The notes beneath the pieces are model-generated. The model made no database searches. It saw only the letters and a program-made list of their open reading frames with translations, and was not told the origin of the DNA. This document shows positions 1 to 53,440 of a stretch of 64,000 nucleotides of DNA, piece after piece. Every line of letters starts with the position of its first letter. The stretch's first letter is position 1. The stretch is from positions 219,164 through 283,163 of the forward strand of contig JAKQPK010000013.1 in NCBI GenBank assembly GCA_029564765.1, read 5' to 3'. The position numbers and the translations under genes are program-made. Origin of the DNA: Candidatus Omnitrophota bacterium (lineage in GTDB: Bacteria; Omnitrophota; Gorgyraeia; Zapsychrales; Aceulaceae).

Positions 1-76
1 AAAGATTATCAACTGGTAGAATTTTTTTGCTTCTTAAGATCAGTTTTTGTTTTACGACATAGAAATACTTTTGATC

Positions 77-2434
77 ATGAAACTCAAACCTTTCCATCAT
101 TTTCTTGCCGTTGCGGCCTTTTTTATTCTCTTTCTCGTTGTTTTCTTTCATGATGTCGTGTTCAAGGGAAAAACCTTTAAGGCGACAACGATGTTCGCGC
201 AAGCTCTGCCCAGTGGCCCTTATGGGCAATCCGGCAACTATGGCACCTCTTGTCATACGTTCTTGCGTGAATCAGCAGCTATTGAAGAACCATTCTATCA
301 ATTTTTAAGAACAAGCTTTCAGCAAGGTGTTTTTCCGCTCTGGAATCCCTATCAATGCTGTGGCGTTCCTGTTACGGCTATGATGGAAGCCGGGATCTTT
401 TTTCCGCTCACTGCAATCGTCTATCTTTTGCCTAATATCATCAGCATGGATGTCTTGATCCTCGCGCGTTTGCTCCTTGCCGCTTTATTGATGTATTGGC
501 TCATGAGCGTTTGGGGTTTTGGCCTGCTGGCAAGGATCGCGGCGGCGCTCATATTTGCCTGCAGCGGCCCGATGGTGACATTGCACATATGGGCGATCAA
601 TGTTGACCTTCTTCTTCCGTTATTATTCTTGAGCGCGTATCAATTTTTTTATCGAGGATCTCTCTGGGACCGTCTTCTTTTAAGCATAGCCGTTGCTTTA
701 AGCATCTTTGGCGGCCACATCGAGCACATCTTCCTTGTTCATTTCACGCTATTGTGTTATGGCATTTTTCTTTTGTGGCAGAGCAACAAAGGATCCCCGA
801 GATCTACCTTTTCTTTGACGGCACGCTTTGTCTCTTTTTACCTCTTGGGTGTCGGCATATCCGCTGTTGCTTTATTTCCTTTTATTCCTGATTTTTTTCA
901 CTCGTGGACATCACATACGGCAGACTGTGGATCTGCTGTCGCGCCTTTATCAGAAGTCCTGGGAAAACTCATTACGGTTATTGTTCCAAAATTCTATAGT
1001 GATGTTCTGATCCCCTTAAAGGGGGAGGTGTACAATTGGTGTGGAGGATATTTAGGTGTCATGACCATTGCGCTTGCTGCAGCCGGGCTATGGTGTAGGT
1101 CGCACAGGCCGTTCATTTTATTTTCTAGCATCGCGTCTTTTATTGTCTATGGCATGGTATCAGGATCAGGCTATACGCAGTGGATCGGGCATTTGCCAGT
1201 CTTTAATATTATGCTTTTACGATTGCATTCGGTCTGGATCCTCACGTTCTTCATCTCTTTCCTTGCTGGAGCTGGGATCGAGAGCATTGCGCTCCAATCT
1301 CAGGCTATGCTCAGAAAATTCTCTTGTATCGCGTTTAGCCTTGGCCTTTTGATCGGATGCTATCTTTTGGTTTTCCGACGTGAACCTTTTTTCGCGCAAG
1401 CGATAAAGGCATCAGGCATCGCGTTCGGTTTTCTTGCCGCGTCCATTCTTTGGTATGTTTTCGCAATGACGGCCACAAGGCGGAAACCATATGCTATCGT
1501 GGTCGGACTTGTCGTCCTTCTTGCCGGGGAGTTGTTTATCCATAATCCTGATTCTCGCCCCCGTCGTTTTGATTCATTCCCGAGAGTGCCTTATGTTGAA
1601 TTTTTAAAAAAGAATACACAGGATCCCAGGTTTCGCGCTCAAGGTTTCTTTCTGGCCTTTTATCGAAATACGGCCATGGCATACGGCGTAGAGAGTTTTT
1701 CAGGAAGCCAGGCACTATATCCTCGTCGATATGTAGAATTCGTTCAACAACTTATCCATCCGGGGCTTTTCTCAACAATATGCCCAAAGCCAATTTCCAC
1801 GGAAGGGTTTGACCAGGCGCTGATCACGCGCAGTGATATATTGGCCTTGGCGAACGTGAATTATTTTGTTCTACCGCAGCAGAGCAATGTTGGGCCTCAG
1901 CCGGTCTATGACGCGGAAACGCAGATCCTTCCCATATCTGCCGCGATATCTTTACCTTCTGCTTTGCCTCGAGCGTATTTAGCCTATCAATGGACATCTG
2001 TTCCTAAGGGCGCAGGACAAGAAGCCTTAGAGAAGATAAAGGCAGCACGATTGCGCGCGGCGGCTAATGTCATTATTGAAAATATCTTGGACAAGAAACT
2101 TCCTTTTACGCCGTCAGAGCGGCAGGGTATCGTGGCGGTTGAAGAAAAGAAGCGATGGGCAAACGGAGTGATCGTCAAGGCGCGCGCGGACGCGCCTTGT
2201 GTATTAGTCCTGACGGATGCTTATTATCCTGGGTGGAAGGCTTGGGTCAATGGGAAGCCTGCGACGATCTATCCGGCGAACCATTTATTCCGCGCGGTTT
2301 TTTTGCCGCCGGGTGACCATAGGGTTGTCTTTCGCTTTGTTCCTTTTTGGTTCTATGTGGGATTAGGAGTAACGGTCTTTAGCTGCGCGCTTTGGGTGGG
2401 GATCTTGTTTCGACGAAAGAAGCAAAGATCATGA
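77..2434 (+). CDS. Polytopic GT-C-like membrane protein (YfhO/PMT-like): about 12 TM helices followed by a roughly 280-aa extracytoplasmic C-terminal domain
   Basis: Long hydrophobic N-terminal two thirds, soluble C-terminal domain, overall size around 790 aa. The ORF track starts at TTG 47; the first ATG is at 77 (MKLKPF...) and there is no clear SD for either. Family assignment is by architecture only. Confidence 0.45.
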   Translation: MKLKPFHHFLAVAAFFILFLVVFFHDVVFKGKTFKATTMFAQALPSGPYGQSGNYGTSCHTFLRESAAIEEPFYQFLRTSFQQGVFPLWNPYQCCGVPVTAMMEAGIFFPLTAIVYLLPNIISMDVLILARLLLAALLMYWLMSVWGFGLLARIAAALIFACSGPMVTLHIWAINVDLLLPLLFLSAYQFFYRGSLWDRLLLSIAVALSIFGGHIEHIFLVHFTLLCYGIFLLWQSNKGSPRSTFSLTARFVSFYLLGVGISAVALFPFIPDFFHSWTSHTADCGSAVAPLSEVLGKLITVIVPKFYSDVLIPLKGEVYNWCGGYLGVMTIALAAAGLWCRSHRPFILFSSIASFIVYGMVSGSGYTQWIGHLPVFNIMLLRLHSVWILTFFISFLAGAGIESIALQSQAMLRKFSCIAFSLGLLIGCYLLVFRREPFFAQAIKASGIAFGFLAASILWYVFAMTATRRKPYAIVVGLVVLLAGELFIHNPDSRPRRFDSFPRVPYVEFLKKNTQDPRFRAQGFFLAFYRNTAMAYGVESFSGSQALYPRRYVEFVQQLIHPGLFSTICPKPISTEGFDQALITRSDILALANVNYFVLPQQSNVGPQPVYDAETQILPISAAISLPSALPRAYLAYQWTSVPKGAGQEALEKIKAARLRAAANVIIENILDKKLPFTPSERQGIVAVEEKKRWANGVIVKARADAPCVLVLTDAYYPGWKAWVNGKPATIYPANHLFRAVFLPPGDHRVVFRFVPFWFYVGLGVTVFSCALWVGILFRRKKQRS

Positions 2435-5193: not shown

Positions 5194-5227
5194 GATTGCA
5201 TAATCATCCGCTCAAAAGGTGTTCATC

Positions 5228-8200
5228 GTGAACAAGCGAGTTAAAATTTTTTTGTCGACGGCAATTTTTGTCGTTTTTCAGACAACCATTTCTTTTGCCG
5301 GATCTATCTATCAAAATTTTGAACCTAATAATGGTTCTGTTGCTTATGGCCTTCCGGGCTATCAGAGCGCTGTTAGTTTCTCTGGCCCTGGCGAACCTGT
5401 GCATTCTGGCGCGCGCTCTTGGAAGGTGATGACGGCCTACCAGTGGGGCGGCACGACCGTTGAGTCCCAAGTGCAAGCAGGGGACGTTAATTTTTATCCT
5501 ACCAAGAACGATCGTATTTCATTTTGGGTTTACGCTGTTATCCCTTTTCCTTGGGGTGGCTTTGATACGGTCGGAATGAAGTTTTTCGATAATAACAATT
5601 ATGCGCTGAGCGGTTTTACGGTCTGGACAACAAAGACTTTTTTTAATGAGCAGTGGACAAGGCTGGACATCCTTTTTAGCCAGCTGCCGGCGGATTTTGA
5701 TCTTGAGCATGTGAACAAGGTCGAGTTTATCTTTTATCAGCACGGCACGTATTATCTCGATGATATCCAGATCGTACGGGAAGATAGAAGCTATCAATCG
5801 TTCGAGCCGCAGCAGCGCTTTGGATCTACAGCTTCGGAGTATGGATGGAAGTGGAATCCGGCGGACACGGTTGATTTTTCTGGCCCTGGCGAGCCAGTGC
5901 AGGAAGGGCTTCACTCCTGGAAGCTTGTCAGTACCCAGAAATGGGGTGGTACGGGTATTCAGTCGCAAGAAAAGAAATATGTGGCAACGCCGACCCCGGA
6001 ACAAAGTTTTTGGCATGTTGATCTGCGTCCAGATCGAAACGATCGATTGACGTTTTGGGTGTACGCTCTTGCGGAGAACGGGTTGGATAACAGCCTTGCC
6101 GTGCAGTTTTATGACCATGGCCAGCATTCAAATGATCAGACCAAGGTTGTTGTTTGGACCAAGAATGCCTCTCGCTATGGCCAATGGACCCGCATGACAA
6201 TTCTTTTTTCGGATCTGCCATCCACGCTTGATCTTTATGACCTGAATAAGATCCAATTTCAGCAATATTGGCCTGGTACATATTATTTTGATGATATTCG
6301 TGCCGCTGGCCCTACCATTAAGATCAGTGAGGCGAAGCTCGCGGAAGGTATTATTAGCTGGGCCTTGGTGCCAGGAGCCGGAAAATATGTTCTAGAGGAG
6401 AGCCGCGTTGGGCCGCAAGGGCCATGGGTTGTCGCGTATAGCGGTGCCCATCCTTTTGATTTTGAGCCGATGCCAGCACCGATCATTTATTCAGATAAAG
6501 TATCGACGGGCAAGCAACAAGAAACTGCCCCTCCGCCATACTTGATCAAGCCTCTAAGAAGAGTTTCTCGCGTGACAAAGCTGTGGTACCGCGTGCGATG
6601 GGAAGATGCTGTTACCACGGCGCATCCTGTGCCGTATGTGTCGCCATGGAGCGATGTCGTTGAATATATGCCGCCCAGCCTTGTCATTAAATATAAAAAG
6701 TTAACACAAGGTGTTCTTGAGTGGACGAAGGTCCCTCAGGCGCATTTATATGAAGCGCAATCAGCCCCCAGCAAGAGTGGCCCTTGGACGCAAATATATT
6801 ATGGATATTTTCCTGCCCAGCCGCTAGCGGTTCAGCAGGGGACGTGGTATCGCGTTCGGGCCCTACATAAAAAAGGAAGCGATATCACGGACATAACCGA
6901 CTGGAGCGTGCCACAACGCTATGTCCAGGGACAAGGATTTTTGCATTCCGCTGGCACGATGATCAAGGATGAGAATGGCCAAGGTAATGAAGTTGTCCTC
7001 CAGGGGGTTAATTTGGGAGGATATCTTTTGACCGAGCGATTTTTTACGGGATTGGGTGATGGGGACAACCCTACCATAGAAGATGACTGGACATTAAGAG
7101 ATGTTTTGATCCAGCGGTTTGGGGAAGTCGGATGTCGTGATCTTTTCAAGACCTATCAGAACGCTTATATTAAGAATTTTGATCTTGATTATCTTAAGGA
7201 GATCGGCGTGAACTTGGTAAGATTGCCGATCTTTTACAGGATACTGCAGAATGATGATGGAACATGGGTGCTGAATGATCAAGGGCAGATCGATTTTGAA
7301 AAGATCGACTATGTTGTGGACGAATGCGCCAACCGCGGTATATACGTGCTGCTTGATCTACACGGTGCTCCGGGAGCCCAAAGCCCAGAAGCGCATACAG
7401 GGCGTGCGAATTTCAACAAACTGTTCGAGAACAGTCCTCAAGGTGAAATATATCGGCAGAGGACAGAAGATCTTTGGATCGCTATCGCGGATCGTTATAA
7501 AGATAATCCATGGGTGTGTGGCTATGATCTTCTTAATGAGCCAACGGGAGCGCCAACCAACGCTGATCTTTGGAGCATGTATGACCGCCTTTATGACGCG
7601 ATCCGCGCTGTCGACCAAAACCACATCATCATGATGGAAGGTATTTGGGATTGGGCAACGCTGCCAACGCCTTCATCGATGAACTGGAACAACGTCGTCT
7701 ACCAATTCCATTATTATTTATGGGGCAGCGATGAGGATGTTCAGGCCCACATGGCCTTTATCGATCAAAAGGTCGCTGAGGGACAAGTTCAGCAGCCGTT
7801 ATATCAGGTCCCGGTCATGATCGGAGAATTTCACGGCTTTACGCAGAAAGCCATCTGGGAATACTATTTGCAGAAGTTCAACGAACAACGCTGGAGTTGG
7901 GCGACATGGACGCATAAGACCTATCCAGCGCCGTCTAATTGGGGATTTTTCAATCATGCCTTTTATGGAACAGAGCTTCCAAGGTTTCGAGATCCCGGAG
8001 GAGATCCTTATGCAACGTTAGCGGATAAGTTCAAGCGTTATGCCACGCTAGATCATCATGAGCGTAACGCGGCATTAACAAACATCATGGACGCGTATCT
8101 TGTTCCGCCGATAATAACGCCATTCATTAAGCGCGTTTCACCGGAAAGTGTTTTAGTTGTGGCAACCGATTTTTATATCCATGGCAAGAATTTTGGGGTC

Positions 8201-8677
8201 ACGCAAGGGTCCGCGGTCGTATCTTTTAACGGGATCGCCATACCCGTGATCTCTTGGTCCGATGACCTTATTCGCGCGTATATACCATCAACGATCACGT
8301 CGCTTTATGGGACGGTCACTGTTCATACAGGCCAGGGGATCAGCAATCCAAAGCTGCTACATGTTATTCAGCCTCCCCAGGTCACGAGCGTTGTTCCGCC
8401 CTCTGGGCCAGTGGGTACACAGATCTGGATCTACGGAAAAGACTTTGGGTCTTATCAGGGGAAGGTCAAGTTTTATTCTCCTCCAGGGTCAACCAATGGC
8501 GGCTTGGCAGAGATCCTTTCGTGGACAGATACACGTATTCGATGTACTGTTCCTAATGATGCGATCACGGGGCCTGTCACGATCATGACGCCTTACGGTA
8601 ACGCAACGTTCGGTTTTGCTGTTACGCTTTCTAACCAACTTGTCGATAAGAAATCTTTCCCTGCCAGGGCTCGTTAG
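5228..8677 (+). CDS. Large secreted multidomain glycoside hydrolase family 5 (cellulase/mannanase-like): signal peptide, 2 tandem ~190-aa duplicated domains, 2 Fn3-like, GH5 catalytic, 2 IPT/TIG domains
   Basis: GH5 motifs (VNLGGYL, LLDLHGAPGAQS, DLLNEP acid/base, GEFHG nucleophile region). C-terminal TIG repeats (VSPESV..., VTSVVPPSGPVGT...). N-terminal internal duplication (FSGPGEPV..SWK...WGGT...FWVYA twice). GTG start at 5228 with AAAGG 9 nt upstream; the alternative GTG is at 5219. Confidence 0.8.
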   Translation: MNKRVKIFLSTAIFVVFQTTISFAGSIYQNFEPNNGSVAYGLPGYQSAVSFSGPGEPVHSGARSWKVMTAYQWGGTTVESQVQAGDVNFYPTKNDRISFWVYAVIPFPWGGFDTVGMKFFDNNNYALSGFTVWTTKTFFNEQWTRLDILFSQLPADFDLEHVNKVEFIFYQHGTYYLDDIQIVREDRSYQSFEPQQRFGSTASEYGWKWNPADTVDFSGPGEPVQEGLHSWKLVSTQKWGGTGIQSQEKKYVATPTPEQSFWHVDLRPDRNDRLTFWVYALAENGLDNSLAVQFYDHGQHSNDQTKVVVWTKNASRYGQWTRMTILFSDLPSTLDLYDLNKIQFQQYWPGTYYFDDIRAAGPTIKISEAKLAEGIISWALVPGAGKYVLEESRVGPQGPWVVAYSGAHPFDFEPMPAPIIYSDKVSTGKQQETAPPPYLIKPLRRVSRVTKLWYRVRWEDAVTTAHPVPYVSPWSDVVEYMPPSLVIKYKKLTQGVLEWTKVPQAHLYEAQSAPSKSGPWTQIYYGYFPAQPLAVQQGTWYRVRALHKKGSDITDITDWSVPQRYVQGQGFLHSAGTMIKDENGQGNEVVLQGVNLGGYLLTERFFTGLGDGDNPTIEDDWTLRDVLIQRFGEVGCRDLFKTYQNAYIKNFDLDYLKEIGVNLVRLPIFYRILQNDDGTWVLNDQGQIDFEKIDYVVDECANRGIYVLLDLHGAPGAQSPEAHTGRANFNKLFENSPQGEIYRQRTEDLWIAIADRYKDNPWVCGYDLLNEPTGAPTNADLWSMYDRLYDAIRAVDQNHIIMMEGIWDWATLPTPSSMNWNNVVYQFHYYLWGSDEDVQAHMAFIDQKVAEGQVQQPLYQVPVMIGEFHGFTQKAIWEYYLQKFNEQRWSWATWTHKTYPAPSNWGFFNHAFYGTELPRFRDPGGDPYATLADKFKRYATLDHHERNAALTNIMDAYLVPPIITPFIKRVSPESVLVVATDFYIHGKNFGVTQGSAVVSFNGIAIPVISWSDDLIRAYIPSTITSLYGTVTVHTGQGISNPKLLHVIQPPQVTSVVPPSGPVGTQIWIYGKDFGSYQGKVKFYSPPGSTNGGLAEILSWTDTRIRCTVPNDAITGPVTIMTPYGNATFGFAVTLSNQLVDKKSFPARAR

Positions 8678-18825: not shown

Positions 18826-18842
18826 AAAACAAAGAGACTTAA

Positions 18843-18880
18843 GGGCCCCGCAGGATCTCTGCGGGGCCCTTTTTCTTTTT
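18843..18880 (+). terminator. Rho-independent terminator
   Basis: GGGCCCCGCAG-GATCT-CTGCGGGGCCC hairpin followed by TTTTTCTTTTT. Confidence 0.75.
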
Positions 18881-18982
18881 CTGCTGGATTCTAGTACCAT
18901 ATCAGCTGGATCGCGTCAGGACGAGTAAAAGATAGACAGCGTCTTTTTTGTTTGTTAATATGCTTATATTCCAAAGACGCAT

Positions 18983-20635
18983 ATGAGCCATCCAAACACC
19001 TTTCTCGATATCGCGCTTTCGTCCCTGCCAAGGCTGTTATCATGCCTGGATCGCAACCCATTGTCTGCGCATTACGGATGTTTTGATAAGAATTATTGGC
19101 ATTATCGCATCGTTACAGATTTTCCGTCCGCGCCTTTTCAGGCAGGCGTTTATTCTCTGGCGCTTGCCTTCACGCATCCAGCGGACAACAATCCTTATTG
19201 CGATCGTTCTGTTATCAAAGAATATATTGAAGCTGGCTTGCGCTTTTGGGCCAAGCAACAGCACAAAGACGGCAGCTTTGATGAGTGGTACCGTTTTGAA
19301 AGAAGCCATGTCGCGACCGCCTTTACATCCCTTTACATCAGCGAAACCTTATTGATCTTAGATGACCGGCTTGATCCCGGTACGCGCGCGATCGCGATCA
19401 ACGCGCTTCGCAAGTCCTGCCAGTGGTTGTCCAAAAACCAGGACAAGGTTGTCTCCAACCATTCTGTTGGCGCCCTTGTCGCTTTGCAGAATTTCTTTCT
19501 TCTGGCCAATGAAGAGTTCGCCCGCGCAAGCGTTGACGCGCACCTGACCCTTTTAGAGCAGCTGCAAAGCAGTGAGGGATGGTTTGCTGAATACGGCGGG
19601 GCTGATCTAGGATATTTAAGTTTATCCCTTGAATTCCTGACGCGTTTTTATGCCAAGACCCAAGATCCGCGCGCCTTAAAAATGATCTCGCAGGCGCTAT
19701 CTTTTATGAAATATTTTGCCCATCCGGATCAAAGCTATGGCGGGGAGTACGGAGCACGCAATACCAAATACATTTTTCCATTTGGTTTAGTCCGGGCCGC
19801 GGATCATTTATCTGACGCCCAAGGCCTGCTCAGCGCTCTGCTAAGATCGCTCGCCAAGGGCCAGGCGATCACGCCATTGACCGCGGATGACCGCTATGCC
19901 ACATTTTTCTTTTTGCCCAGCTATCTTGATGCTGGATTCTCGCTTGAAGGAGAATTGCTTGATGTCCCAATGCTTAAGAGCTTTGAACAGCACTTTGAAG
20001 CCGCTGGAATTTTCAATAAAAAGAACATCTTATACCACGCGGTCATCAATTACAAAAAAAATGGCGTCAGCAAGATCTTTAGCGCCGACGGTCGGCAGAT
20101 GTTCTCTGACACAGGGTATGTTGCTCAGTTCTTTGATGGCACGGTCGCGGCCTCTCAGTGGCTTGACCCCAAGCGCTCCGTGAGTGTCGATAAGGAAAAC
20201 AATATCACGCGCATAAAGATCCGCTCACCATTTGCCTATACCAGTTTTCATCAAGATCTCGCTTTTTATTCTTTCGCGTTCAAGATCCTTGCGGGGATCA
20301 TTGGGCGCAGCGCTATGTTATCAGAAAAATTGGGGCGGCTGGTCAAACATCTGTTCATCAAAAAGATCAAGACATGTCCGATCATTTTAGAGCGCGAGAT
20401 GGTGATCAGCGAAGAAGGATTGACCGTGCGCGACCATATTGTGAACAGAACAGGCAAAAGACTCTCTAAATTCTTTTTAACATCAGACCTTTCGGTCATG
20501 CACGTGCCGTCATCCAAGCTTTTTGTCTTAGATGATCTGCGCGTGGAGCCCCGTAAGGATCTGGCCCAGGATTTTGATCGCCAGAGAACCGTTACCTGCG
20601 AATACAAGCATTATTTTAACACTGTCAAATTTTAA
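18983..20635 (+). CDS. Hypothetical 550-aa protein, first gene of the rSAM/GT2/AsnB cassette (possibly an alpha-helical toroid polysaccharide-modifying enzyme)
   Basis: No motif I can name with confidence. Co-directional and tightly spaced with the next three genes. Confidence 0.5.
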   Translation: MSHPNTFLDIALSSLPRLLSCLDRNPLSAHYGCFDKNYWHYRIVTDFPSAPFQAGVYSLALAFTHPADNNPYCDRSVIKEYIEAGLRFWAKQQHKDGSFDEWYRFERSHVATAFTSLYISETLLILDDRLDPGTRAIAINALRKSCQWLSKNQDKVVSNHSVGALVALQNFFLLANEEFARASVDAHLTLLEQLQSSEGWFAEYGGADLGYLSLSLEFLTRFYAKTQDPRALKMISQALSFMKYFAHPDQSYGGEYGARNTKYIFPFGLVRAADHLSDAQGLLSALLRSLAKGQAITPLTADDRYATFFFLPSYLDAGFSLEGELLDVPMLKSFEQHFEAAGIFNKKNILYHAVINYKKNGVSKIFSADGRQMFSDTGYVAQFFDGTVAASQWLDPKRSVSVDKENNITRIKIRSPFAYTSFHQDLAFYSFAFKILAGIIGRSAMLSEKLGRLVKHLFIKKIKTCPIILEREMVISEEGLTVRDHIVNRTGKRLSKFFLTSDLSVMHVPSSKLFVLDDLRVEPRKDLAQDFDRQRTVTCEYKHYFNTVKF

Positions 20636-20652
20636 CGTATCAATTAAAGCTT

Positions 20653-22101
20653 ATGAAGATCCTTGTCCTTGTTCCTCCCAGTAAATTCGTCAAGAATGTT
20701 CCGCGTGATCTTGTCTATGGCTGCTGGTGCAAAGGAAAACGCATTGCCGGTATCCAGTTTCCGCCGCTAACATCGGTCATTGTCGCGACCGTCTTGCAAG
20801 ACGATGGGCATGACGTCACATTTTTGGACGCGGCTGGAGGATACAAGACTCTGGAATATGTGAAAGGCGTCGCGAAAGAAAAGGATGTCGTGATCCTTTT
20901 AACATCCACGATGACCGTCAATGAGGACGCGGAGGTCTTGGCACAGCTAAAAAGCGTCAATCCAAAGCTTATCTCCATTGTCTTCGGCTCACATCCTACG
21001 TTCTTGCCGGAAGAAACCTTGACAAAGAAGGGCATTGATATCGCGGTGCGCCGCGAATCCGAATATATCATTCGCGATCTGGTTCGCGCCTTTACCAAAA
21101 ATGACAACAGCTGGAAAAAAGTTCCCGGTATCGCGTTCCGCGAAGGTACAACAAGCGTTGTGAATCCCGACTATCCTTTGATCGAGAATTTAGATGCCCT
21201 TCCTTTTCCGGATCGCGCGATGCTGGATCCGTCAGTTGAGTATTTTAATCCGATCATCAAGCGCGCGCCATTTACCACGATCTACACCACGCGCGGCTGT
21301 CCGGGCAAGTGCACATTTTGTTCTTCACCATCCTTTTATGGCCGCAAGATCCGTTTTCGCAGTGCCAAAAGTATTTTAGAAGAATTGCGCATTATTAAGA
21401 AAATGGGCTACCGCGAAGTTTTTTTCCGTGATGAATTTTTTCCTGTGTCCAAAGAGCGTACGCGTGAGCTCTGCGAGGCCATGATCAGCGAAAAAATGGA
21501 TCTCACATGGATCTGCAGCGCGCGCGTGGGCACTATTGATGAAGAAACGATGCGGTTGATGAAAAAAGCCGGTTGCCATATGATCCGCTTTGGCGCAGAG
21601 TCCGGTGTTCAAAAGATCCTAGATAATGTGAAAAAAGAAATTCAAGTCGATGCGACCCGTGCAACCTTCGCGTCAGCCAATCGCGTCGGGCTCTCGACGC
21701 ATGCGCATATGATGATCGCGATGCCCGGGGAGACCAAAGAAACTATTGAACAATCTATCCAGTTTGCCAAAGAGATCAACCCGACGGTCGTCACGTTCGG
21801 AGTTATGACACCGTATCCGGGCACCGAAGTTTACGAAGAAGTGCGTAAAGCCCATCCCGAGATAGGTGATGGCAGCGCCTGTGATCTAAGCAAACTCCAC
21901 ACGCAAGGATTCTTCAATGAAGCCTTTACATCGCTTTCGCGTGAGGAAATTTCCCAGTACATCCGCAAAGCGTATTTTCAATTTTACATGCGGCCAAGTT
22001 ATATTTTTTCATGGCTTAAACGTATCAATTCGTTTGAAGAATTGCGCCGGGTTATCTTAGCCGGCCTTCAAGTGTTCAGTTTCGTAAAAGGCAACGATTA
22101 G
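20653..22101 (+). CDS. B12-binding domain radical SAM protein
   Basis: N-terminal Rossmann-like B12-binding region. CPGKCTFC (CxxxCxxC) radical SAM cluster motif in the TIM-barrel core. Confidence 0.85.
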   Translation: MKILVLVPPSKFVKNVPRDLVYGCWCKGKRIAGIQFPPLTSVIVATVLQDDGHDVTFLDAAGGYKTLEYVKGVAKEKDVVILLTSTMTVNEDAEVLAQLKSVNPKLISIVFGSHPTFLPEETLTKKGIDIAVRRESEYIIRDLVRAFTKNDNSWKKVPGIAFREGTTSVVNPDYPLIENLDALPFPDRAMLDPSVEYFNPIIKRAPFTTIYTTRGCPGKCTFCSSPSFYGRKIRFRSAKSILEELRIIKKMGYREVFFRDEFFPVSKERTRELCEAMISEKMDLTWICSARVGTIDEETMRLMKKAGCHMIRFGAESGVQKILDNVKKEIQVDATRATFASANRVGLSTHAHMMIAMPGETKETIEQSIQFAKEINPTVVTFGVMTPYPGTEVYEEVRKAHPEIGDGSACDLSKLHTQGFFNEAFTSLSREEISQYIRKAYFQFYMRPSYIFSWLKRINSFEELRRVILAGLQVFSFVKGND

Positions 22102-22116
22102 TTTTAAGGAGGCATT

Positions 22117-22995
22117 ATGAGCCAAGAGTTGGATGTTTCTATTCTTATTCCTGTGTACAACGAAGAACAAGCGATCAAGGGCATCATTGACCAAGTAAGC
22201 TCGGTCATGCAGAAAGAAAAATATTCTTACGAAGTTTTGATCGTCGATGATGCTTCTGATGATAAGACACGCGAAGAGGTTGCCAAGACAAACGCGCGTT
22301 TAGTGAAGCGTTCAAGCCGGGGCGGGGCAGGAGCGGCGCGTAAAACAGGTATTCGCGCAGCCCTTGGAAAGATCGTTGTCATGCTCGACGGCGACGGAAG
22401 CTATGAAATAAACGATATCCCCAAGATGCTTGCTTTTTTTCCTGAATACGACCAGGTCAATGGGGCCCGCACCAGTGAACAAGGAACCTTAAAATATTTA
22501 CGCGCGCCGGCCAAATGGTTCATCCGTAAGCTCGCGTGTTATTTGACCGATACCAATATCCCAGACTTGAACACAGGCCTTAAGGCCTTTAAAAAAGATA
22601 TCATGCTGCGTTATCTTTGGGTTGTCCCGAATGGTTTTTCGTGTGTTACCACAATGACCTTGGCGTTTTTGTGTAATGGCCATAGCGTCAAATATATCCC
22701 CACGAGCTATTATCCGCGTATCGGCCAGTCCAAATTCCACCCCGTGAAAGACACTTACCAGTATTTTCTAACGGTTGTGCGTATGGTCACATATTTTAAT
22801 CCCTTAAAGATCTTTTTGCCGATGTCTTTTGGGCTTTTCCTGATCGGCATTGCCAAGTCGTTGTATGATTTCTTTTTTGTCATTGGGCGCTTGCAGCAAT
22901 CGGATATCATTATCCTGTTGGCATCTGTCATGATATTTTCTTTGGGGTTGTTGGCAGACTTGATCGTCGCGCAATCCCGACAACACAGCGGCTAA
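22117..22995 (+). CDS. GT2 polyprenol-phosphate glycosyltransferase (DPM1/GtrB/ArnC-like) with two C-terminal TM helices
   Basis: ILIPVYNEE, DDASDD and DGDGS (DxD) motifs. C-terminal hydrophobic hairpin typical of Und-P-sugar synthases. Confidence 0.8.
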   Translation: MSQELDVSILIPVYNEEQAIKGIIDQVSSVMQKEKYSYEVLIVDDASDDKTREEVAKTNARLVKRSSRGGAGAARKTGIRAALGKIVVMLDGDGSYEINDIPKMLAFFPEYDQVNGARTSEQGTLKYLRAPAKWFIRKLACYLTDTNIPDLNTGLKAFKKDIMLRYLWVVPNGFSCVTTMTLAFLCNGHSVKYIPTSYYPRIGQSKFHPVKDTYQYFLTVVRMVTYFNPLKIFLPMSFGLFLIGIAKSLYDFFFVIGRLQQSDIIILLASVMIFSLGLLADLIVAQSRQHSG

Positions 22996-23000
22996 AATCT

Positions 23001-24932
23001 ATGTGCGGGATCCTGGGAGCCATCTATTTTAATGGTCAACGTGCCGATGCCGGCGAGCTTTTGCGTGCCGCGCAATGGATGAAACACCGTGGACCCGACG
23101 ATGAAGGCTCCTGGGCGAAAGAAAGTGTGGGTTTCGCGCACAAGCGCCTTTCCATCTTAGACCTTTCCTATGCTGGGCATCAGCCCATGGTTTCTGCCGA
23201 CGGTCAATCGGTCATTATCTACAACGGTGAATGTTACAATTTTAAAGAACTGCGCGCTGATCTTGAGCAAAAAGGCTACACCTTCCGCTCCCACACTGAC
23301 ACTGAAGTCATTCTTTACGGCATTGAAGAATACGGCACAGGTTTTATCAGCAAGATGAACGGTATGTTCAGCTTTGCCATTTGGTCGCAGAAGCGCAACG
23401 AGCTTTTGCTTGTGCGTGACAGGCTGGGCGTCAAACCTCTTTATATTTATCACGACCGTGAAAAACTATTCTTTTCTTCCGAGATAAAACCTCTGTTAAG
23501 CCTTGGCGTGCCCGCAACGCTCAATGAGAAAATGCTGAGTTTCTTCTTTTCTCTGCGCTATTGCCCAGGCGATGAAACGCTTTTTAAAGGTATTGCCAAA
23601 CTTTCTCCGGGCCATTTTATGAAGATCAAAAAAAACGGATCTGTTGAAAAACAATGTTATTGGTCGCTTTTGGATTGCTGGGATGTCGCGCCCTATACGC
23701 TTGCCCAAGCCAAAGACAGATTTTATGAACTCTTTTCTTCGGCAGTTTCTTTGCGCCAAATAGCGGATGTCCCCGTTGGGGCGTTTCTTTCCGGCGGCAT
23801 TGACTCAAGCGCTATTGTGGCCTTAATGAAAAAGAATGAGCCCAACGTTGAAAGTTTTACGATCGGCATGGGCTCTGATATTGACGAGTCGTACGCGGCC
23901 AAGCGTGTGGCGGATTTTGTGGGTATCAGAAACGACACCTTTGCGCTTCAAAAGGGTGATTATCGTCTTTACGAAAAAGCCCTTTGGCATCTGGAAGAGC
24001 CCATCGGTGATTCGATCATTGCTCCGACATATTTGTTAGCGCAGCGCGCGGCACAGCGCCTGAAAGTCGTTGAGCTTGGTGAGGGTGCGGATGAGATCTT
24101 GGGCGGTTACATTCATCAGCTGGCGCTTACCTATGGCGAAAGCTTTAAAACGCATTTTCCGCTCCTTTCTTCGCGCGTTATTCCTTCTGTTGCCAGGATG
24201 ATGCCGCAAGTTTTTTGGGAAAAGGTTTTTCCGTATCCGGCTCAGCTGGGCGCATCGGGTGTAGCAAAGGTCGTGGATTACCTTAAAAATACTGACAAGC
24301 TGGCCAAGCGCTACTTGGGGCTTGCCGGTTTATTTGAGGAAAGCGAAAAACAAAGCCTTTTTGCCGAAAAGTTTTACCGTGATGCGATCGCGCCTACAGA
24401 TGCCTCAAGTGTTTTTGACCAATTCTTATCCAAGCAAAAGAATCCTATTTTTCAAAACCGGCTTCTCGCTCTTGATCTTCGATATTGGAATACCGACTAC
24501 ACGCTGTTGCGTATGGACAAACTCACCATGGCGCATTCCCTGGAAGCGCGCGTGCCGTATCTGGATTACCGCTTAGTCGAGTTTTGCCTGAAATTACCCC
24601 GCGAGCTAAAAACAAAAGGTTTCAAGCAAAAGATCCTTTTGCGTGAAGCGCTTAAAGGCAAGAACCTTTTGCCCCAAGAAACGATCGCCGCGCGCAAAAA
24701 AGCTTTTTATCTTCCTATCGAAAAATGTTTTGATGAGAAGTTCCAAGGCTATATGAAAGATGTCCTGCTTTCGGATTCTCTGCGACAGCGTGATATCTTT
24801 AATATGCGAAGCATTGAAAAACTTTTGAGCGCGTCCAATCGTGAGCTTGTCAACAATAAGCAGTTGATGGCGCTTTTGGTCTTTGAGCTTTGGGCGCGGA
24901 TGTTTCTGGATGGGGGATGGAAGAAAGATTAA
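23001..24932 (+). CDS. Asparagine synthase (glutamine-hydrolysing)-family amidotransferase, long AsnB/WbpS-like form
   Basis: MCGI N-terminal Cys nucleophile (Ntn), SGGIDSS PP-loop. At 643 aa it is longer than housekeeping AsnB. Confidence 0.9.
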   Translation: MCGILGAIYFNGQRADAGELLRAAQWMKHRGPDDEGSWAKESVGFAHKRLSILDLSYAGHQPMVSADGQSVIIYNGECYNFKELRADLEQKGYTFRSHTDTEVILYGIEEYGTGFISKMNGMFSFAIWSQKRNELLLVRDRLGVKPLYIYHDREKLFFSSEIKPLLSLGVPATLNEKMLSFFFSLRYCPGDETLFKGIAKLSPGHFMKIKKNGSVEKQCYWSLLDCWDVAPYTLAQAKDRFYELFSSAVSLRQIADVPVGAFLSGGIDSSAIVALMKKNEPNVESFTIGMGSDIDESYAAKRVADFVGIRNDTFALQKGDYRLYEKALWHLEEPIGDSIIAPTYLLAQRAAQRLKVVELGEGADEILGGYIHQLALTYGESFKTHFPLLSSRVIPSVARMMPQVFWEKVFPYPAQLGASGVAKVVDYLKNTDKLAKRYLGLAGLFEESEKQSLFAEKFYRDAIAPTDASSVFDQFLSKQKNPIFQNRLLALDLRYWNTDYTLLRMDKLTMAHSLEARVPYLDYRLVEFCLKLPRELKTKGFKQKILLREALKGKNLLPQETIAARKKAFYLPIEKCFDEKFQGYMKDVLLSDSLRQRDIFNMRSIEKLLSASNRELVNNKQLMALLVFELWARMFLDGGWKKD

Positions 24933-24936
24933 GGGC

Positions 24937-24987
24937 AGTCGTTGGTCGATAGCATTTAGTATTTAGCTAAATACTAACGACTAAATA
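24937..24987. promoter_or_regulatory. Composite palindrome: 22-bp perfect inverted repeat TTAGTATTTAGCTAAATACTAA flanked by AGTCGT/ACGACT, with the half-site CTAAATAC repeated again 11 bp downstream
   Basis: Read directly: 24956-24977 is a perfect palindrome. GTATTTAG / CTAAATAC / CTAAATAC lie at 24959, 24969 and 24980. It sits 5 bp after the asnB-like stop and has no T-tract. Confidence 0.45.
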
Positions 24988-25017
24988 CCAAGGACAATCT
25001 TTTAACTGGGGGTGTTT

Positions 25018-25176
25018 ATGAAAGTACTCGGGAAATCAGTTAAAGTGTTTAAGATCAAGAATCGTCGCGGATATGCAGCACTCTGCAATGATCATTTGAC
25101 CGAAGGCTCTACGTCAGCCCAAGCCTGCGAGCGTATGGAAAAGGCGCTCAAGAGGACGGGGAAGAAGAGGAAGTAA
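25018..25176 (+). CDS. Small basic 52-aa protein (not in the ORF track)
   Basis: GGGGGTG SD-like 4 nt before ATG. MKVLGKSVKVFKIKNRRGYAALCNDHLTEGSTSAQACERMEKALKRTGKKRK. Weak resemblance to a half YegP/DUF1508-type fold. Lies in the AT-rich islet. Confidence 0.3.
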   Translation: MKVLGKSVKVFKIKNRRGYAALCNDHLTEGSTSAQACERMEKALKRTGKKRK

Positions 25177-25187
25177 AAAAGTTAGTT

Positions 25188-25241
25188 GAGTTTATAGAGT
25201 TTATAGAGCTTGTTGAGTCGGTTGAGTTTGTAGAGTTAACC
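25188..25241. repeat. Tandem 9-bp repeat array, 6 units, consensus GAGTTTRTA
   Basis: gagtttata gagtttata gagcttgtt gagtcggtt gagtttgta gagttaacc. Confidence 0.8.
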
Positions 25242-25330
25242 CAATGAACGCAAAGAACACAAGAAACCCAATCAACCCAATGAACACAATGAGCGCAACA
25301 AACCCGATGAACCCAACTAGCCCAAAAATA
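25241..25330. repeat. Tandem 9-bp repeat array, 10 units, consensus CCAATGAAC
   Basis: ccaatgaac gcaaagaac acaagaaac ccaatcaac ccaatgaac acaatgagc gcaacaaac ccgatgaac ccaactagc ccaaaaata. Directly abuts the first array. Confidence 0.8.
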
Positions 25331-25376
25331 GGTAGAAACGTTTTGGTTTTTCATTGGTTTTTCAGGAGGAAACGAT

Positions 25377-25565
25377 ATGGACAAGATATTTGATGCGTGC
25401 GTGGCTATATTGCTGGATATGGCAGCCTTCACCGGAACAACATACAAGACGATCAATGTGATTATTTTTTGTATTATTTGGCCGATCGTGACTTTGGCGC
25501 TTGTGCTTTTGACTTTGCGTCAACGTGATGTCATTAGAGATCTTAAAAAGCGCATTAATCGATAA
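25377..25565 (+). CDS. 62-aa two-TM small membrane protein
   Basis: Strong SD AGGAGGAAACGAT before ATG. Two hydrophobic helices and a basic C-terminus. AGAAACGTTTT, a degenerate copy of the AGAA-N3-TTCT element, lies 35 bp upstream. Confidence 0.5.
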   Translation: MDKIFDACVAILLDMAAFTGTTYKTINVIIFCIIWPIVTLALVLLTLRQRDVIRDLKKRINR

Positions 25566-51432: not shown

Positions 51433-52238
51433 TCAAGTTCTTTATCGTGATCGTTGTCGCGCTGATCGCCTTTCTTGTCTTTGTTCGGTATCTTGAGTCT
51501 AAAAGCGTTTTTTTTCCCCAGAAGGAAATAGAGTTCTTGCCTGATGCCAAGCGCTATCTTTTCTCTGAAGTTTTCTTTCAAACAGAAGATGGGCTGACGC
51601 TTAACGGTTGGTTCTTTCGTTATCCTTCAGCTCAAGCAACACTGCTTTTCTTCCACGGCAACGGTGGCAATGTTTGTCATCGCTTGGATAAGATCTTATT
51701 GTTTCGAGACATGGGATTGAACGTTTTCATTATTGATTATCGTGGATACGGAAAAAGTCAGGGACGCCCTAGTGAGCAGGGGGTGTATCAAGATGCGATA
51801 GCCGCTTTCGATTATCTGTCTGGACGACTTGACATTCACAAAGATAAGATCATTGGCTACGGGGAATCTTTAGGTGGTGTGGTTGCCTTGGAGCTTGCGC
51901 GCAAGCGTCCTTTCGCTGCGTTGATCGTCGATTCTAGCTTTTCTTCGGTTGCTGATATTGCTAAGCTGTATTATCCTTTCATCCCTGCCTTTTTGCTGAG
52001 AACAAGAATGGATGCGGCTTCTTATTCGCGGGATATCAAAGCGCCTAAGCTTTTTATTCATAGCCAGAACGACGATATTGTTCCTTTTACCTTGGGTAAA
52101 AAACTTTTTGACGCAGCTGCTGAGCCAAAAGAATTCTTAGCGATCCAAGGTGACCATAATCAAGGATACGTGGACTCTAAGGATGTCTACAGTGAAGGTA
52201 TCAAGAAATTTCTTAACGTTCAGGGACTTTTACCATGA
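51429..52238 (+). CDS. Alpha/beta hydrolase (membrane-anchored)
   Basis: N-terminal TM. HGNGGN oxyanion region and GESLGG nucleophile elbow. Confidence 0.75.
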   Translation: MIKFFIVIVVALIAFLVFVRYLESKSVFFPQKEIEFLPDAKRYLFSEVFFQTEDGLTLNGWFFRYPSAQATLLFFHGNGGNVCHRLDKILLFRDMGLNVFIIDYRGYGKSQGRPSEQGVYQDAIAAFDYLSGRLDIHKDKIIGYGESLGGVVALELARKRPFAALIVDSSFSSVADIAKLYYPFIPAFLLRTRMDAASYSRDIKAPKLFIHSQNDDIVPFTLGKKLFDAAAEPKEFLAIQGDHNQGYVDSKDVYSEGIKKFLNVQGLLP

Positions 52239-53440
52239 AGCATTCTTTTTTAAGGACGCAAAGAACAAAGATCGTTGATGCTAGGGGCCGTGAGATATTC
52301 TTGCGAGGCGTGAATCTTGGCGGATGGCTAATGATGGAAGGCTATTTTTTGCAGGCGCCTAATATCGGTGTTCGGAAATTCAAGAAAGAATTTGCCGCGC
52401 GCCTTGGCGAAAAGGCTTTGCAGGATTTTGAGCGCGCGTTCTATGGTACATTTATTCAAGAAGAAGATTTCAAGCGTGTTGCCCAAATGAAGCTGAATTG
52501 CATCCGCTTGCCATTCCATCATGGGCTCATCGAGACAGAGTCTTATCGCTATAGCGCCAAAGGTGTCGCGTATCTTGATCAAGCGATCCGATGGGCAAAG
52601 AAATATAGCCTTTATATTATTTTGGACTTGCATGGGGCGGCGGGATGCCAGAACCATGATTGGCACTCAGACAGCTTAGGAAAAGCCGAGCTCTGGAGCA
52701 ATAAAAATTTCCAGAAAAGGACCGCGGCGCTTTGGGAATTTTTAGCTGATCGTTATCGTGATGAATCAACCGTGGCTGGATATGATCTTTTAAACGAGGC
52801 TGTCATTACTGATGAAAAGAAGCTCAACGATCTTTATCGCATGATCATCCAGGCGATCCGTTCAGCCGATAAGAACCATGTTCTTTTCGTCGAAGGGAAT
52901 AAATGGGCAACGGATCTCAAGTGTTTAGAAAGATTTCACGATCATAATTTAGCGCTCAGCATCCATTTTTATCATCCGATCGATTTTTCATTTAATTTTG
53001 TCCCATCACTGCGTTATCCATTACGCTATCAAGGGGTCAAGTGGGACCGCGCGATGCTGGGTCGCATGGCTGCTTCCTACGCGAGGGCCGCTAAAAAATA
53101 TGGCGCGCCGGTTTTTGTCGGGGAGTTTGGTGTTAATGACCGTGATAACGTTCATCATGAGATCGATTATCTAAAGGATGTTCTTTCTTGTTTTGACGCG
53201 CACGATTTTCATTGGACGTATTGGACCTATAAGGCCGTGAAGCACACCATGTTTCCTGACGGACTTTTCAGTTATTATCCCAATAGCCCTTGGGTGAATC
53301 GTCAGGGGCCCAAAACAGGCTGGGATACTTACGCTGATCTTTGGCCGCGCCACAAAAAAGATATTATTGAGTCTTGGAAAACAAAATATTTTACTCCCAA
53401 CACCAAAGCGATCAAGGCGCTTTCCTCATGCCAAGCATAA
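52235..53440 (+). CDS. Glycoside hydrolase family 5 with no signal peptide
   Basis: GVNLGGWL, ILDLHGAAGCQN, DLLNEA and GEFG motifs. Paralogous to the catalytic domain of the 5228-8677 protein. Confidence 0.75.
   Translation: MKHSFLRTQRTKIVDARGREIFLRGVNLGGWLMMEGYFLQAPNIGVRKFKKEFAARLGEKALQDFERAFYGTFIQEEDFKRVAQMKLNCIRLPFHHGLIETESYRYSAKGVAYLDQAIRWAKKYSLYIILDLHGAAGCQNHDWHSDSLGKAELWSNKNFQKRTAALWEFLADRYRDESTVAGYDLLNEAVITDEKKLNDLYRMIIQAIRSADKNHVLFVEGNKWATDLKCLERFHDHNLALSIHFYHPIDFSFNFVPSLRYPLRYQGVKWDRAMLGRMAASYARAAKKYGAPVFVGEFGVNDRDNVHHEIDYLKDVLSCFDAHDFHWTYWTYKAVKHTMFPDGLFSYYPNSPWVNRQGPKTGWDTYADLWPRHKKDIIESWKTKYFTPNTKAIKALSSCQA

Follow-up and report, generated by a model that had tools for sequence, protein, structure and literature searches.

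In many bacteria and archaea, glycosylation that depends on a lipid carrier decorates lipopolysaccharide, teichoic acids, arabinogalactan and surface proteins. In some of these pathways the sugar is edited while it is attached to the carrier, ArnD, NaxD and DprE being enzymes of this kind; to our knowledge, the carrier-level edits known so far are few, namely deformylation, deacetylation and the 2'-epimerisation of ribose. Here we describe a cassette of four genes, A to D (Table 1), found in a 64-kb stretch of DNA (hereafter the window) from a Candidatus Omnitrophota bacterium. The genes encode a protein of a family without prior characterisation (A), a radical S-adenosylmethionine (SAM) protein with a B12-binding domain (B), a family 2 glycosyltransferase (GT2; C) and a long AsnB-type amidotransferase (D). 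[quoted passage not shown] An earlier annotation of the same DNA (the original prediction) had proposed an uncharacterised pathway for the transfer of a modified sugar; the co-localisation of the four genes in other genomes and the modelled fold of A support this predicted function.

Three-component systems of the Arn/GtrB kind are reportedly the subject of PMC11127046. The cassette shares with Arn (ArnC-ArnD-ArnE/F-ArnT), FlmF2-NaxD-FlmK, DprE1/E2, GtrA/B/C and CsbB-GtcA-YfhO a GT2 of the GtrB/ArnC type with a transmembrane hairpin, and related loci in other genomes also hold a flippase-like protein and a glycosyltransferase of the GT-C type (PMT_2 or YfhO). Relatives of A are encoded between the synthase and the flippase, as are ArnD or NaxD in the Arn and Francisella galactosamine (GalN) systems. 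The logic of the cassette, in which a carrier-linked monosaccharide would be edited before it is flipped, is like that of the Arn, Francisella GalN and mycobacterial decaprenylphosphoryl ribose to decaprenylphosphoryl arabinose (DPR-to-DPA) pathways, but the cassette is a member of none of them. Its tailoring enzymes differ (a protein of lyase/epimerase fold, an HpnJ-like radical SAM protein and an AsnB-type enzyme) and have not been described in such a setting. In addition, the flippase-like partner of its relatives is of the MprF/LPG_synthase_TM type, not GtrA or ArnE/F, and in the window neither a flippase nor a GT-C adjoins the cassette.

The three-component logic is thus already known; what appears to be novel is the combination of such tailoring enzymes with a carrier setting, together with a large unnamed protein family. 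The cassette points to a much richer set of carrier-level sugar edits. If the predicted chemistry is true, it would explain how rare sugars are delivered to the surface without a nucleotide-activated precursor, and it would provide a function for a conserved gene set in uncultured small-genome lineages (the candidate phyla radiation, CPR; DPANN; Omnitrophota), the surface biology of which is almost unknown. If the chemistry is wrong, the A family would still be a large and well-defined target with a confident model and candidate catalytic residues.

Conserved neighbourhood of protein A and the GT2 enzyme C

The four genes are co-directional on the plus strand and occupy exactly the coordinates given in the original prediction. 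The spacers A-B and B-C (17 and 15 nt) fall within the 15-20 bp proposed there, whereas C-D is shorter (5 nt); an AGGAGG motif is located ahead of C. Identical copies (100%) of each of the four are present in the Candidatus Omnitrophota metagenome-assembled genome (MAG) GCA_035358335.1 and in two other assemblies, on contigs that reach 288 kb, and every cassette protein has hundreds to thousands of homologues. A to D are therefore real genes rather than chance open reading frames (ORFs), and their arrangement, with a terminator before and a palindrome after them, suggests that they form one operon.

The conservation of this arrangement was assessed in 81 loci from other species with a callable A gene, neighbours being counted within 10 kb. 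The most frequent neighbour of A is a C-like GT2, full-length and with its transmembrane region, which was found in 60 of the 81 loci, within three genes of A in 53 and directly adjoining it in 35, usually just upstream and on the same strand; the stop and start codons of the GT2 and A genes frequently overlap. A B12 radical SAM gene occurs in 22 loci (directly adjoining A in 10) and AsnB in 21 (adjoining in 8), while close orthologues of B (>50% identity) lie immediately 3' of A in about 10. In 83 loci from other species, the edges of these genes are concentrated close to A. At a distance of up to 200 nt their density per 10 kb was 8.4 for C, 3.4 for B and 3.1 for D, compared with 0.15, 0.20 and 0.07 at 5-10 kb, which corresponds to 56-fold, 17-fold and 45-fold enrichment, respectively. 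Nearly all relatives of C, B and D that lie close to A are on the same strand.

Co-localisation in related genomes had been proposed as a check, and homologues of the four genes do occur together in unrelated lineages, tightly grouped around A: in L004, L006 (Parcubacteria), L010 (a Cyanobacteriota MAG), L013 (an Actinomycetota MAG), L026 (Omnitrophota) and L089, and more loosely in L005, L038, L047 and L053.

Protein C contains the GT2 domain (PF00535, 87.2 bits, residues 8-160) with a D91-G-D93 motif, and its hydrophobic segments at about 232-257 and 259-287 constitute a C-terminal transmembrane hairpin. It aligns with GtrB sll0501 over its whole length including the hairpin (5-282 against 26-310, E = 1e-11), whereas the alignments with the Pyrococcus furiosus dolichol-phosphate mannose synthase (DPMS, E = 2.8e-11) and with ArnC (E = 1.9e-10) cover most of it or a part. 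The best curated model is AglJ, which covers residues 6-289 of 292 with 125.4 bits, its cut-off of 325 not being reached. None of the NCBIfam equivalog cut-offs is reached by C, and HpnI gave no match. According to these comparisons, C is predicted to be a polyprenyl-phosphate glycosyltransferase of the GtrB/DPMS/ArnC/AglJ type, in agreement with the polyprenol-phosphate GT2 with a transmembrane hairpin that had been proposed before.

The membrane partners of A in other genomes point in the same direction. An MprF-type flippase-like gene, or a fusion of a flippase-like and a PMT_2 (GT-C) domain, is present in 21 of the 81 loci; the MprF-type membrane protein (LPG_synthase_TM) adjoins A in 10, and the LPG_synthase_TM-PMT_2 fusion does so in five of five Dictyoglomota-type loci. 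The latter (L017, L019, L020, L021 and L024) have a minimal gene order consisting of GT2, A and a 760-aa flippase-like-PMT_2 fusion, and no AsnB, radical SAM or methyltransferase gene was found in them; they are the simplest setting of the A family. Organisms with related loci include Gemmatimonas phototrophica (L075), Dictyoglomus (L017-L021) and Truepera/Trueperaceae (L042, L044, L082). PMT_2 or YfhO genes were detected in L005, L006, L088 and L089. This minimal conserved unit, a GT2, A and a flippase-like protein with or without GT-C, argues for a three-component architecture.

Other recurrent partners of A are SAM methyltransferases, radical SAM-SPASM proteins, a UDP-sugar 6-dehydrogenase, a WbpI-type 2-epimerase and an ADH/Gfo-Idh-MocA bi-domain oxidoreductase. 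Markers of uronic acids beside A (the UDP-sugar 6-dehydrogenase, the WbpI-type 2-epimerase, the bi-domain oxidoreductase or AsnB) were found in 31 of the 81 loci, and in L007 a complete WbpA/B/D/E/I-like set lies next to GT2-AsnB-A. A nitroreductase-family protein of about 217 aa is encoded between the GT2 and A or beside A in 13 loci (adjoining in 10), among them L018, L023, L028, L031, L033, L037, L040, L050 and L055; most of these come from DPANN archaea, and the others from CPR or unclassified bacterial MAGs.

The predicted fold of protein A

The original prediction could not assign A to a family. In agreement with this, Pfam and NCBIfam searches gave no match at E<0.01 and chance-level matches only at E<10, and profile searches of the PDB with two A alignments returned no lyase, the matches being generic toroid repeats only (the complement C4 TED domain and squalene-hopene cyclase). 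The one hint from sequence is PF25840 (Ulvan_lyase_N), a weak precomputed match that gains strength in some relatives of A; weak Pec_lyase or GH127 matches occur in some relatives as well. In a profile search over 1.84 billion cluster representatives (clusters at 50% identity), the family comprised 3005 clusters at E<=1e-3 and 1328 at E<=1e-30, and a scan of one genome per species found it in at least 576 species. Its bacterial members come from Omnitrophota, CPR (Parcubacteria, Nealsonbacteria, Paceibacterota), Dictyoglomota, Trueperaceae, Chloroflexota, Planctomycetota, Gemmatimonadota, Myxococcota, Desulfobacterota, Acidobacteriota and Clostridia, and the archaeal ones from Woesearchaeota, Nanoarchaeia, Altiarchaeota and Methanocrinis. 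All of them are named "hypothetical protein" in the databases. A literature search for the family or the cassette (in the contexts of heparinase-like proteins, asparagine synthase, O-antigen, undecaprenyl phosphate, GT-C and C5-epimerase) found no paper describing either. The possibility raised earlier, that A might prove to be an unrelated and well-characterised enzyme, is thus not borne out; it belongs to an uncharacterised family.

An AlphaFold2 model of A, built from a 62-sequence alignment, has a pLDDT of 92.7 and a pTM of 0.93. In the model, residues 1-320 form an alpha/alpha toroid and residues 334-550 an antiparallel beta-sandwich, into which a two-helix insert (427-460) is placed; the insert is amphipathic and basic, its pattern is conserved, and it could be a membrane-interface element. 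A Foldseek search of the model against the PDB gave 73 matches at E<=1e-3, the best 50 of which are nearly all lyases of the uronate clan or human dermatan sulfate epimerase 1 (DS-epi1), the alignments spanning about 550-600 columns; GH127 and GH154 glycosidases are among the lower-ranked ones. The top match is chondroitin AC lyase 2wda (E = 1.6e-8, TM-score 0.54), and DS-epi1 (6hzn) is matched at E = 3.5e-7 with a TM-score of 0.53. Further strong matches are the PL35 glycosaminoglycan lyases, the alginate lyases Dp0100, PL17 and PL15, xanthan lyase, PL33 BT4410, hyaluronate lyases, heparinases II and III and PL8. The E-values of the lyase and epimerase matches range from 1e-8 to 1e-4, at a sequence identity of about 10%. 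A heparinase or other alpha-toroid fold had been suggested for checking, and the model indeed predicts the heparinase/alginate-lyase/chondroitinase/DS-epimerase fold: A shares, at the level of the model, the fold of uronate-specific polysaccharide lyases and of the dermatan sulfate C5-epimerase.

In a broader alignment of 77 sequences, N159, G199, E203, D208, Y211 and R259 are invariant and H160 is conserved in 87%. N159 and Y211, 52 residues apart, each open successive helices of the toroid. In the PL17 lyase Alg17c, N201-H202 are the neutralisers and Y258 is the catalytic acid (PMC4765187), and DS-epi1 has the corresponding residues H205 and Y261 (PMC8006597). By analogy, the spacing of N159-H160 and Y211 in A resembles these pairs, and with R259 they make up a putative toroid set Asn(-His)...Tyr...Arg such as is found in the uronate lyases (PL8, PL12, PL15, PL17, PL21, PL33, PL35) and in the epimerases DS-epi1 and Glce, with which A also shares the two-domain architecture at a TM-score of about 0.5. 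A differs from these enzymes in its low identity, in the lack of a Pfam heparinase or alginate-lyase match other than the weak PF25840, and in having no signal peptide and no conserved Tyr/His of the beta-domain or metal triad. Its genomic setting is biosynthetic, not degradative, and its probable substrate is a lipid-linked sugar, not a polymer.

Neither a signal peptide nor a transmembrane helix was found in A (the maximum 19-residue hydropathy is 1.34), and its N-terminus is conserved as a component of the fold. Three independent members of the family are fusions: P0302 and P0309 (802 and 787 aa) carry a C-terminal class I SAM methyltransferase, and P0325 (770 aa) a C-terminal GNAT acetyltransferase domain. 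Because A has no signal peptide and these fused domains require cytoplasmic cofactors, its role is probably cytoplasmic and biosynthetic, and A looks like a cytoplasmic tailoring enzyme.

The structural neighbours of A all act on polymers, and A occurs with AsnB in Wzx-type clusters with UDP-ManNAc3NAcA-pathway-like genes (L007 and similar). Both facts would fit a different role, namely the tailoring of a repeat unit linked to lipid diphosphate (lipid-PP) or of a nascent polymer. In that case A would be a polymer-level C5-epimerase, as DS-epi1 and Glce are, or a trimming lyase, D would amidate uronates in the manner of WbpS or WbtH, and C would be a side-branch enzyme. AsnB-type formation of uronamides in O-antigen clusters (WbpS, WbtH) is established. 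However, A is cytoplasmic and has no export signal, and by far its commonest partner is a GtrB-type GT2, often with overlapping stop and start codons. The minimal loci, with a GT2, A and a flippase-like protein (with or without GT-C), contain no polymerase or other glycosyltransferases, and among the window ORFs scanned there are no polymer-assembly genes near the cassette. We therefore consider polymer tailoring rather improbable.

Predicted tailoring enzymes B and D and the proposed pathway

The earlier assignments of B, C and D hold, with B12-binding and Radical_SAM domains in B, a GT2 domain in C, and GATase_7 and Asn_synthase domains in D. Protein B matches PF04055 (86.8 bits) and PF02310 (52.8 bits), both over the Pfam cut-offs, and its CxxxCxxC motif is formed by C216, C220 and C223. 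The best model is HpnJ (TIGR03471), with 291.8 bits over the full length (55-479 against 47-468 of 472) and below the cut-off of 577.6, followed by BchE (197.9 bits) and AprD4 (152 bits); the first methyltransferase model is PhpK (149 bits). The closest solved structure is that of AprD4 (6fd2), an enzyme that has a B12-binding-type domain yet is not known to contain cobalamin. B is accordingly assigned to the class B-type radical SAM enzymes and leans, in its sequence affinities, to the non-methylating clades (HpnJ, BchE, AprD4), which favours a rearrangement or dehydration over methylation. Of the amidated and/or methylated sugar of the original prediction, methylation is the less likely part. 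As an HpnJ equivalog B was rejected, its score being far under the cut-off and hopanoid genes (shc, hpnH, hpnI, hpnK) being absent from the window ORFs scanned.

Orthologues of B with 53-69% identity are widespread. Loci collected with them as queries show the orders AsnB-methyltransferase-GT2-A-B (L089), A-GT2-x-B (L090) and AsnB...GT2-radical SAM-B followed by a polytopic membrane protein (L091), while L088 has a solitary B next to a YfhO-like GT-C. The roughly 565-aa proteins beside B in L088 and L091 were considered as divergent A and rejected, as they are polytopic membrane proteins. From these arrangements B appears tied to carrier-dependent glycosylation without being strictly dependent on A. 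In L004 (12457-15072) an 871-aa fusion of a B12-binding radical SAM protein with a GT4 glycosyltransferase is encoded among relatives of A, B, C and D; this fusion supports the view that the B12 radical SAM enzymes of these clusters would act directly on sugars.

The hpnIJKL genes for the hopanoid side chain (the GT2 HpnI, the B12 radical SAM enzyme HpnJ, the deacetylase HpnK and the flippase-like HpnL) and the calditol synthase Cds offer a parallel to B. The substrate of HpnJ is a lipid-linked hexosamine, and HpnJ and Cds have been proposed to act on lipid-linked hexoses by a rearrangement or dehydration that begins with hydrogen abstraction from a sugar carbon (PMC13459092); the substrate proposed for the cassette is likewise a lipid-attached sugar. 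It is conceivable, then, that the cassette modifies the head group of a membrane glycolipid in the manner of hpnIJKL: C would glycosylate a resident lipid, B would contract the sugar ring to a cyclitol as HpnJ or Cds do, A and D would modify it further, and the product would stay in the membrane. The full-length similarity of B to HpnJ fits this, as do the recurrence beside A of MprF/HpnL-type flippase-like genes, so that the set of a GT2, a B12 radical SAM protein and an LPG_synthase_TM-type membrane protein is found again in A loci, and the absence of a GT-C adjoining the cassette in the window. Yet C is GtrB/DPMS/ArnC/AglJ-like and not HpnI-like, B remains far under the HpnJ cut-off, the window ORFs scanned offer no hopanoid context, and A and D have no counterpart in hpn. 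Moreover, GT-C enzymes that require a carrier-bound donor (PMT_2, YfhO) recur in the related loci, even fused to the flippase-like domain, and members of the A family are present in CPR and DPANN organisms, whose lipid synthesis is in general considered limited. On balance, a head-group role for the cassette seems doubtful.

Protein D matches PF13537 (GATase_7, 151.5 bits) and PF00733 (Asn_synthase, 257.9 bits), retains the Cys2 nucleophile (MCGILG) and the SGGIDS PP-loop at 264, and passes the general asparagine synthase model TIGR01536 (436.5 bits against a cut-off of 267.1). With the nucleophile and the PP-loop intact, D would amidate a carboxylate, and it is predicted to convert the carboxylate of the sugar to a carboxamide. 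WbpS, WbtH and the TIGR03108 proteins are likewise long (about 640 aa) AsnB paralogues of glycan loci with intact Cys2 and PP-loop. D was rejected as an XrtA/PEP-CTERM amidotransferase (TIGR03108), since it scores 423.7 bits against a cut-off of 816.9 and has no PEP-CTERM/exosortase context, and as the housekeeping AsnB (PRK09431), which it matches in three separate stretches with 283.7 against 499 bits.

The last result bears on the view that the adjacency of the four genes is meaningless, D being a housekeeping asparagine synthetase and A a cytoplasmic oligo-uronide lyase akin to the PL15/PL17 exolyases. PL15 and PL17 oligoalginate lyases do have the fold of A, and D does pass TIGR01536, but besides the low score of D as AsnB, the genes have stayed neighbours in different phyla and in both domains of life (17- to 56-fold distance enrichment), genes for sugar transport or uronate catabolism do not accompany A, and its family includes fusions with biosynthetic methyltransferase and GNAT domains. 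Such a catabolic role is very unlikely. Even less probable is a cluster for a ribosomally synthesised and post-translationally modified peptide (RiPP) or other peptide natural product, with D as a lactam-forming cyclase, B as a peptide C-methyltransferase, A as a LanC-like cyclase and C as a glycocin-type glycosyltransferase. Below threshold, D matches the lasso-peptide cyclase model (240.9 bits, cut-off 525) and B the RiPP radical SAM models ApyD and rSAM_ocin_1, and one relative of A weakly matches LANC_like; but the spacers of 5-17 nt are too short to hold an ORF for a precursor peptide, the beta-sandwich of A is of the lyase type and A lacks a conserved Cys/His zinc site, and the neighbours are glycan genes (GT-C, flippase-like, UDP-sugar dehydrogenase, Wzx). 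The peptide cluster, the catabolic lyase and chance juxtaposition were all rejected.

In the carrier-editing pathway that we prefer, C would load a sugar from a nucleotide sugar onto polyprenyl phosphate, as GtrB, DPMS and ArnC do. A, soluble or peripheral, would then act on the carrier-bound sugar, most likely by abstraction of the C5 proton, D would adenylate the carboxylate of the sugar and convert it to a carboxamide with ammonia from glutamine, and B would perform a radical step on a sugar carbon, for which an HpnJ/AprD4-type rearrangement or dehydration is likelier than methylation. The finished donor would be flipped and moved to an envelope polymer or protein by a GT-C encoded elsewhere. 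For the sugar, a uronic acid, perhaps N-acetylated, is the probable candidate, since the best structural relatives of A act on uronates through abstraction of the C5 proton, D needs a carboxylate as its target, and the markers of uronic-acid synthesis accompany A in part of the loci, with the full set in L007. We favour epimerisation over chain cleavage, as A is cytoplasmic and its substrate would be one sugar on a carrier; in the work on the DS-epi1 structure it is argued that small changes of the active site can turn a lyase into an epimerase (PMC8006597).

A bolder version of this pathway, which we put forward only tentatively as an unlikely one, is that A founds a new class of enzymes, a cytoplasmic uronate C5-epimerase or eliminase that acts on a polyprenyl-phosphate sugar, and that together with an HpnJ/Cds-like rearrangement by B it yields a donor that has no nucleotide-activated form. 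If true, this donor for surface glycosylation might be, for example, a uronamide of L configuration or a carbocyclic derivative, and the route would be common to Omnitrophota, CPR bacteria, DPANN archaea and many other phyla.

Several observations weigh against the carrier-editing pathway or parts of it. No uronate marker was found in 50 of the 81 A loci, and AsnB and methyltransferase genes are both missing from the minimal loci with a GT2, A and a flippase-like protein. The idea that A always has AsnB or a SAM methyltransferase as a partner was rejected, since only 36 of the 81 loci contain one, and the core function of A cannot therefore depend on modification of the carboxylate. Orthologues of B occur without A in L088 and L091. 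In L007 and similar loci A lies within a Wzx-type cluster, where its substrate could be a lipid-PP-oligosaccharide. With regard to the active site, the 77 sequences contain no conserved counterpart of the second catalytic Tyr/His that the beta-domain would provide; the only positions of this domain conserved in at least 85% are K359, D376, G378, R471 and D484. The invariant set of A is rich in acids (E203, D208; also E101, E106 and E198), which would equally suit a cationic or amino sugar or a metal-phosphate site.

The window itself provides little of the remaining machinery, which also counts against the proposed pathway: tblastn and the scanned ORFs revealed no nucleotide-sugar, flippase or nearby GT-C genes in the 64 kb. 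In particular, a relative of LPG_synthase_TM was found neither by tblastn nor among the Pfam-scanned ORFs, and a UDP-sugar dehydrogenase, nitroreductase, radical SAM-SPASM protein, 2-epimerase and bi-domain oxidoreductase were looked for in the window and not found. The original prediction had suggested that a GT-C-like protein at 77-2434 (here ORF 47-2434) could be the cognate transferase. Flippase-like and GT-C genes do recur in related loci, but the link to this ORF is weak. It matches Pfam YfhO (E = 6.7e-14) only at its C-terminal residues 700-776, sits 16.5 kb from the cassette with unrelated genes between, and has relatives in only 3 of about 90 related loci (L013 with two copies, L069 and L088). 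It is a possible acceptor-side transferase for the lipid-linked sugar and one candidate for the last step.

Locus anatomy and side observations

Table 1. Positions of the cassette genes and of other features in the window
Feature	Position	Strand	Description
A	18983-20635	+	550 aa; probably cytoplasmic, predicted alpha/alpha toroid + beta-sandwich, family without prior characterisation
B	20653-22101	+	482 aa; HpnJ-like radical SAM protein with B12-binding domain (PF02310 + PF04055)
C	22117-22995	+	292 aa; predicted GT2 polyprenyl-phosphate glycosyltransferase of the GtrB/DPMS/ArnC/AglJ type, C-terminal transmembrane hairpin
D	23001-24932	+	643 aa; long AsnB-type glutamine-dependent amidotransferase (GATase_7/6 + Asn_synthase)
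Hairpin terminator, 5' boundary of the cassette	18841-18871	+	14-bp stem, 10 G-C pairs, 3-nt loop
Promoter-like site	18933-18961	+	TAGACA-17-TAATAT, extended TG; 22 nt before the start of A
Imperfect AT-rich palindrome, possible 3' boundary element	24938-24995		6 nt past the stop codon of D
YfhO-like polytopic membrane protein (GT-C type)	47-2434	+	795 aa, TTG start

The upstream terminator of the original prediction is real. The 3' flank of its stem is TTTTCTTTTT, with a T-rich tail, and it closes a unit of carB and a gene for a 200-aa membrane protein. The promoter-like site between it and A agrees with the consensus in 9 of 12 positions, a score that shuffled sequence yields equally often. 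The downstream palindrome also exists, but it is imperfect and AT-rich: its arms (24938-24966 and 24967-24995) are 29 nt each, 76% complementary and without a spacer, and as no T-run follows, it is not a classical intrinsic terminator.

Elsewhere in the window, the ORFs scanned have functions unrelated to the cassette (FeoB, Msr, CarB, GreA, an Mla system, GH5 cellulases and permeases), and apart from the YfhO-like protein none of them is a further glycan-assembly gene. On this basis the cassette is a compact and self-contained unit. Searches of the window for tRNAs and Rfam families were negative. The GH5 (cellulase family) genes are located at 5219-8677 and 52235-53440, and the product of the first has 1152 aa with C-terminal IPT/TIG domains.

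Downstream of the cassette, between a small ORF (25019-25207) and the next gene, positions 25180-25316 contain two adjoining arrays with a period of 9 bp. One array repeats AGTTTGTAG about 6.4 times and the other AACCCAATG about 8.8 times; periods of 18, 27 and 36 bp fit as well. A minus-strand ORF (25148-25456) would translate these arrays as a Ser/Thr/Asn-rich repeat.

Finally, the gene order of the window was also found in L008 (CAZAOD010000012.1), which is labelled "uncultured Planctomycetales bacterium". Its carB is 98% identical to that of the Omnitrophota window and its A to D are 80-96% identical, which suggests that one of the two labels, Planctomycetales or Omnitrophota, is probably an error of binning or classification.

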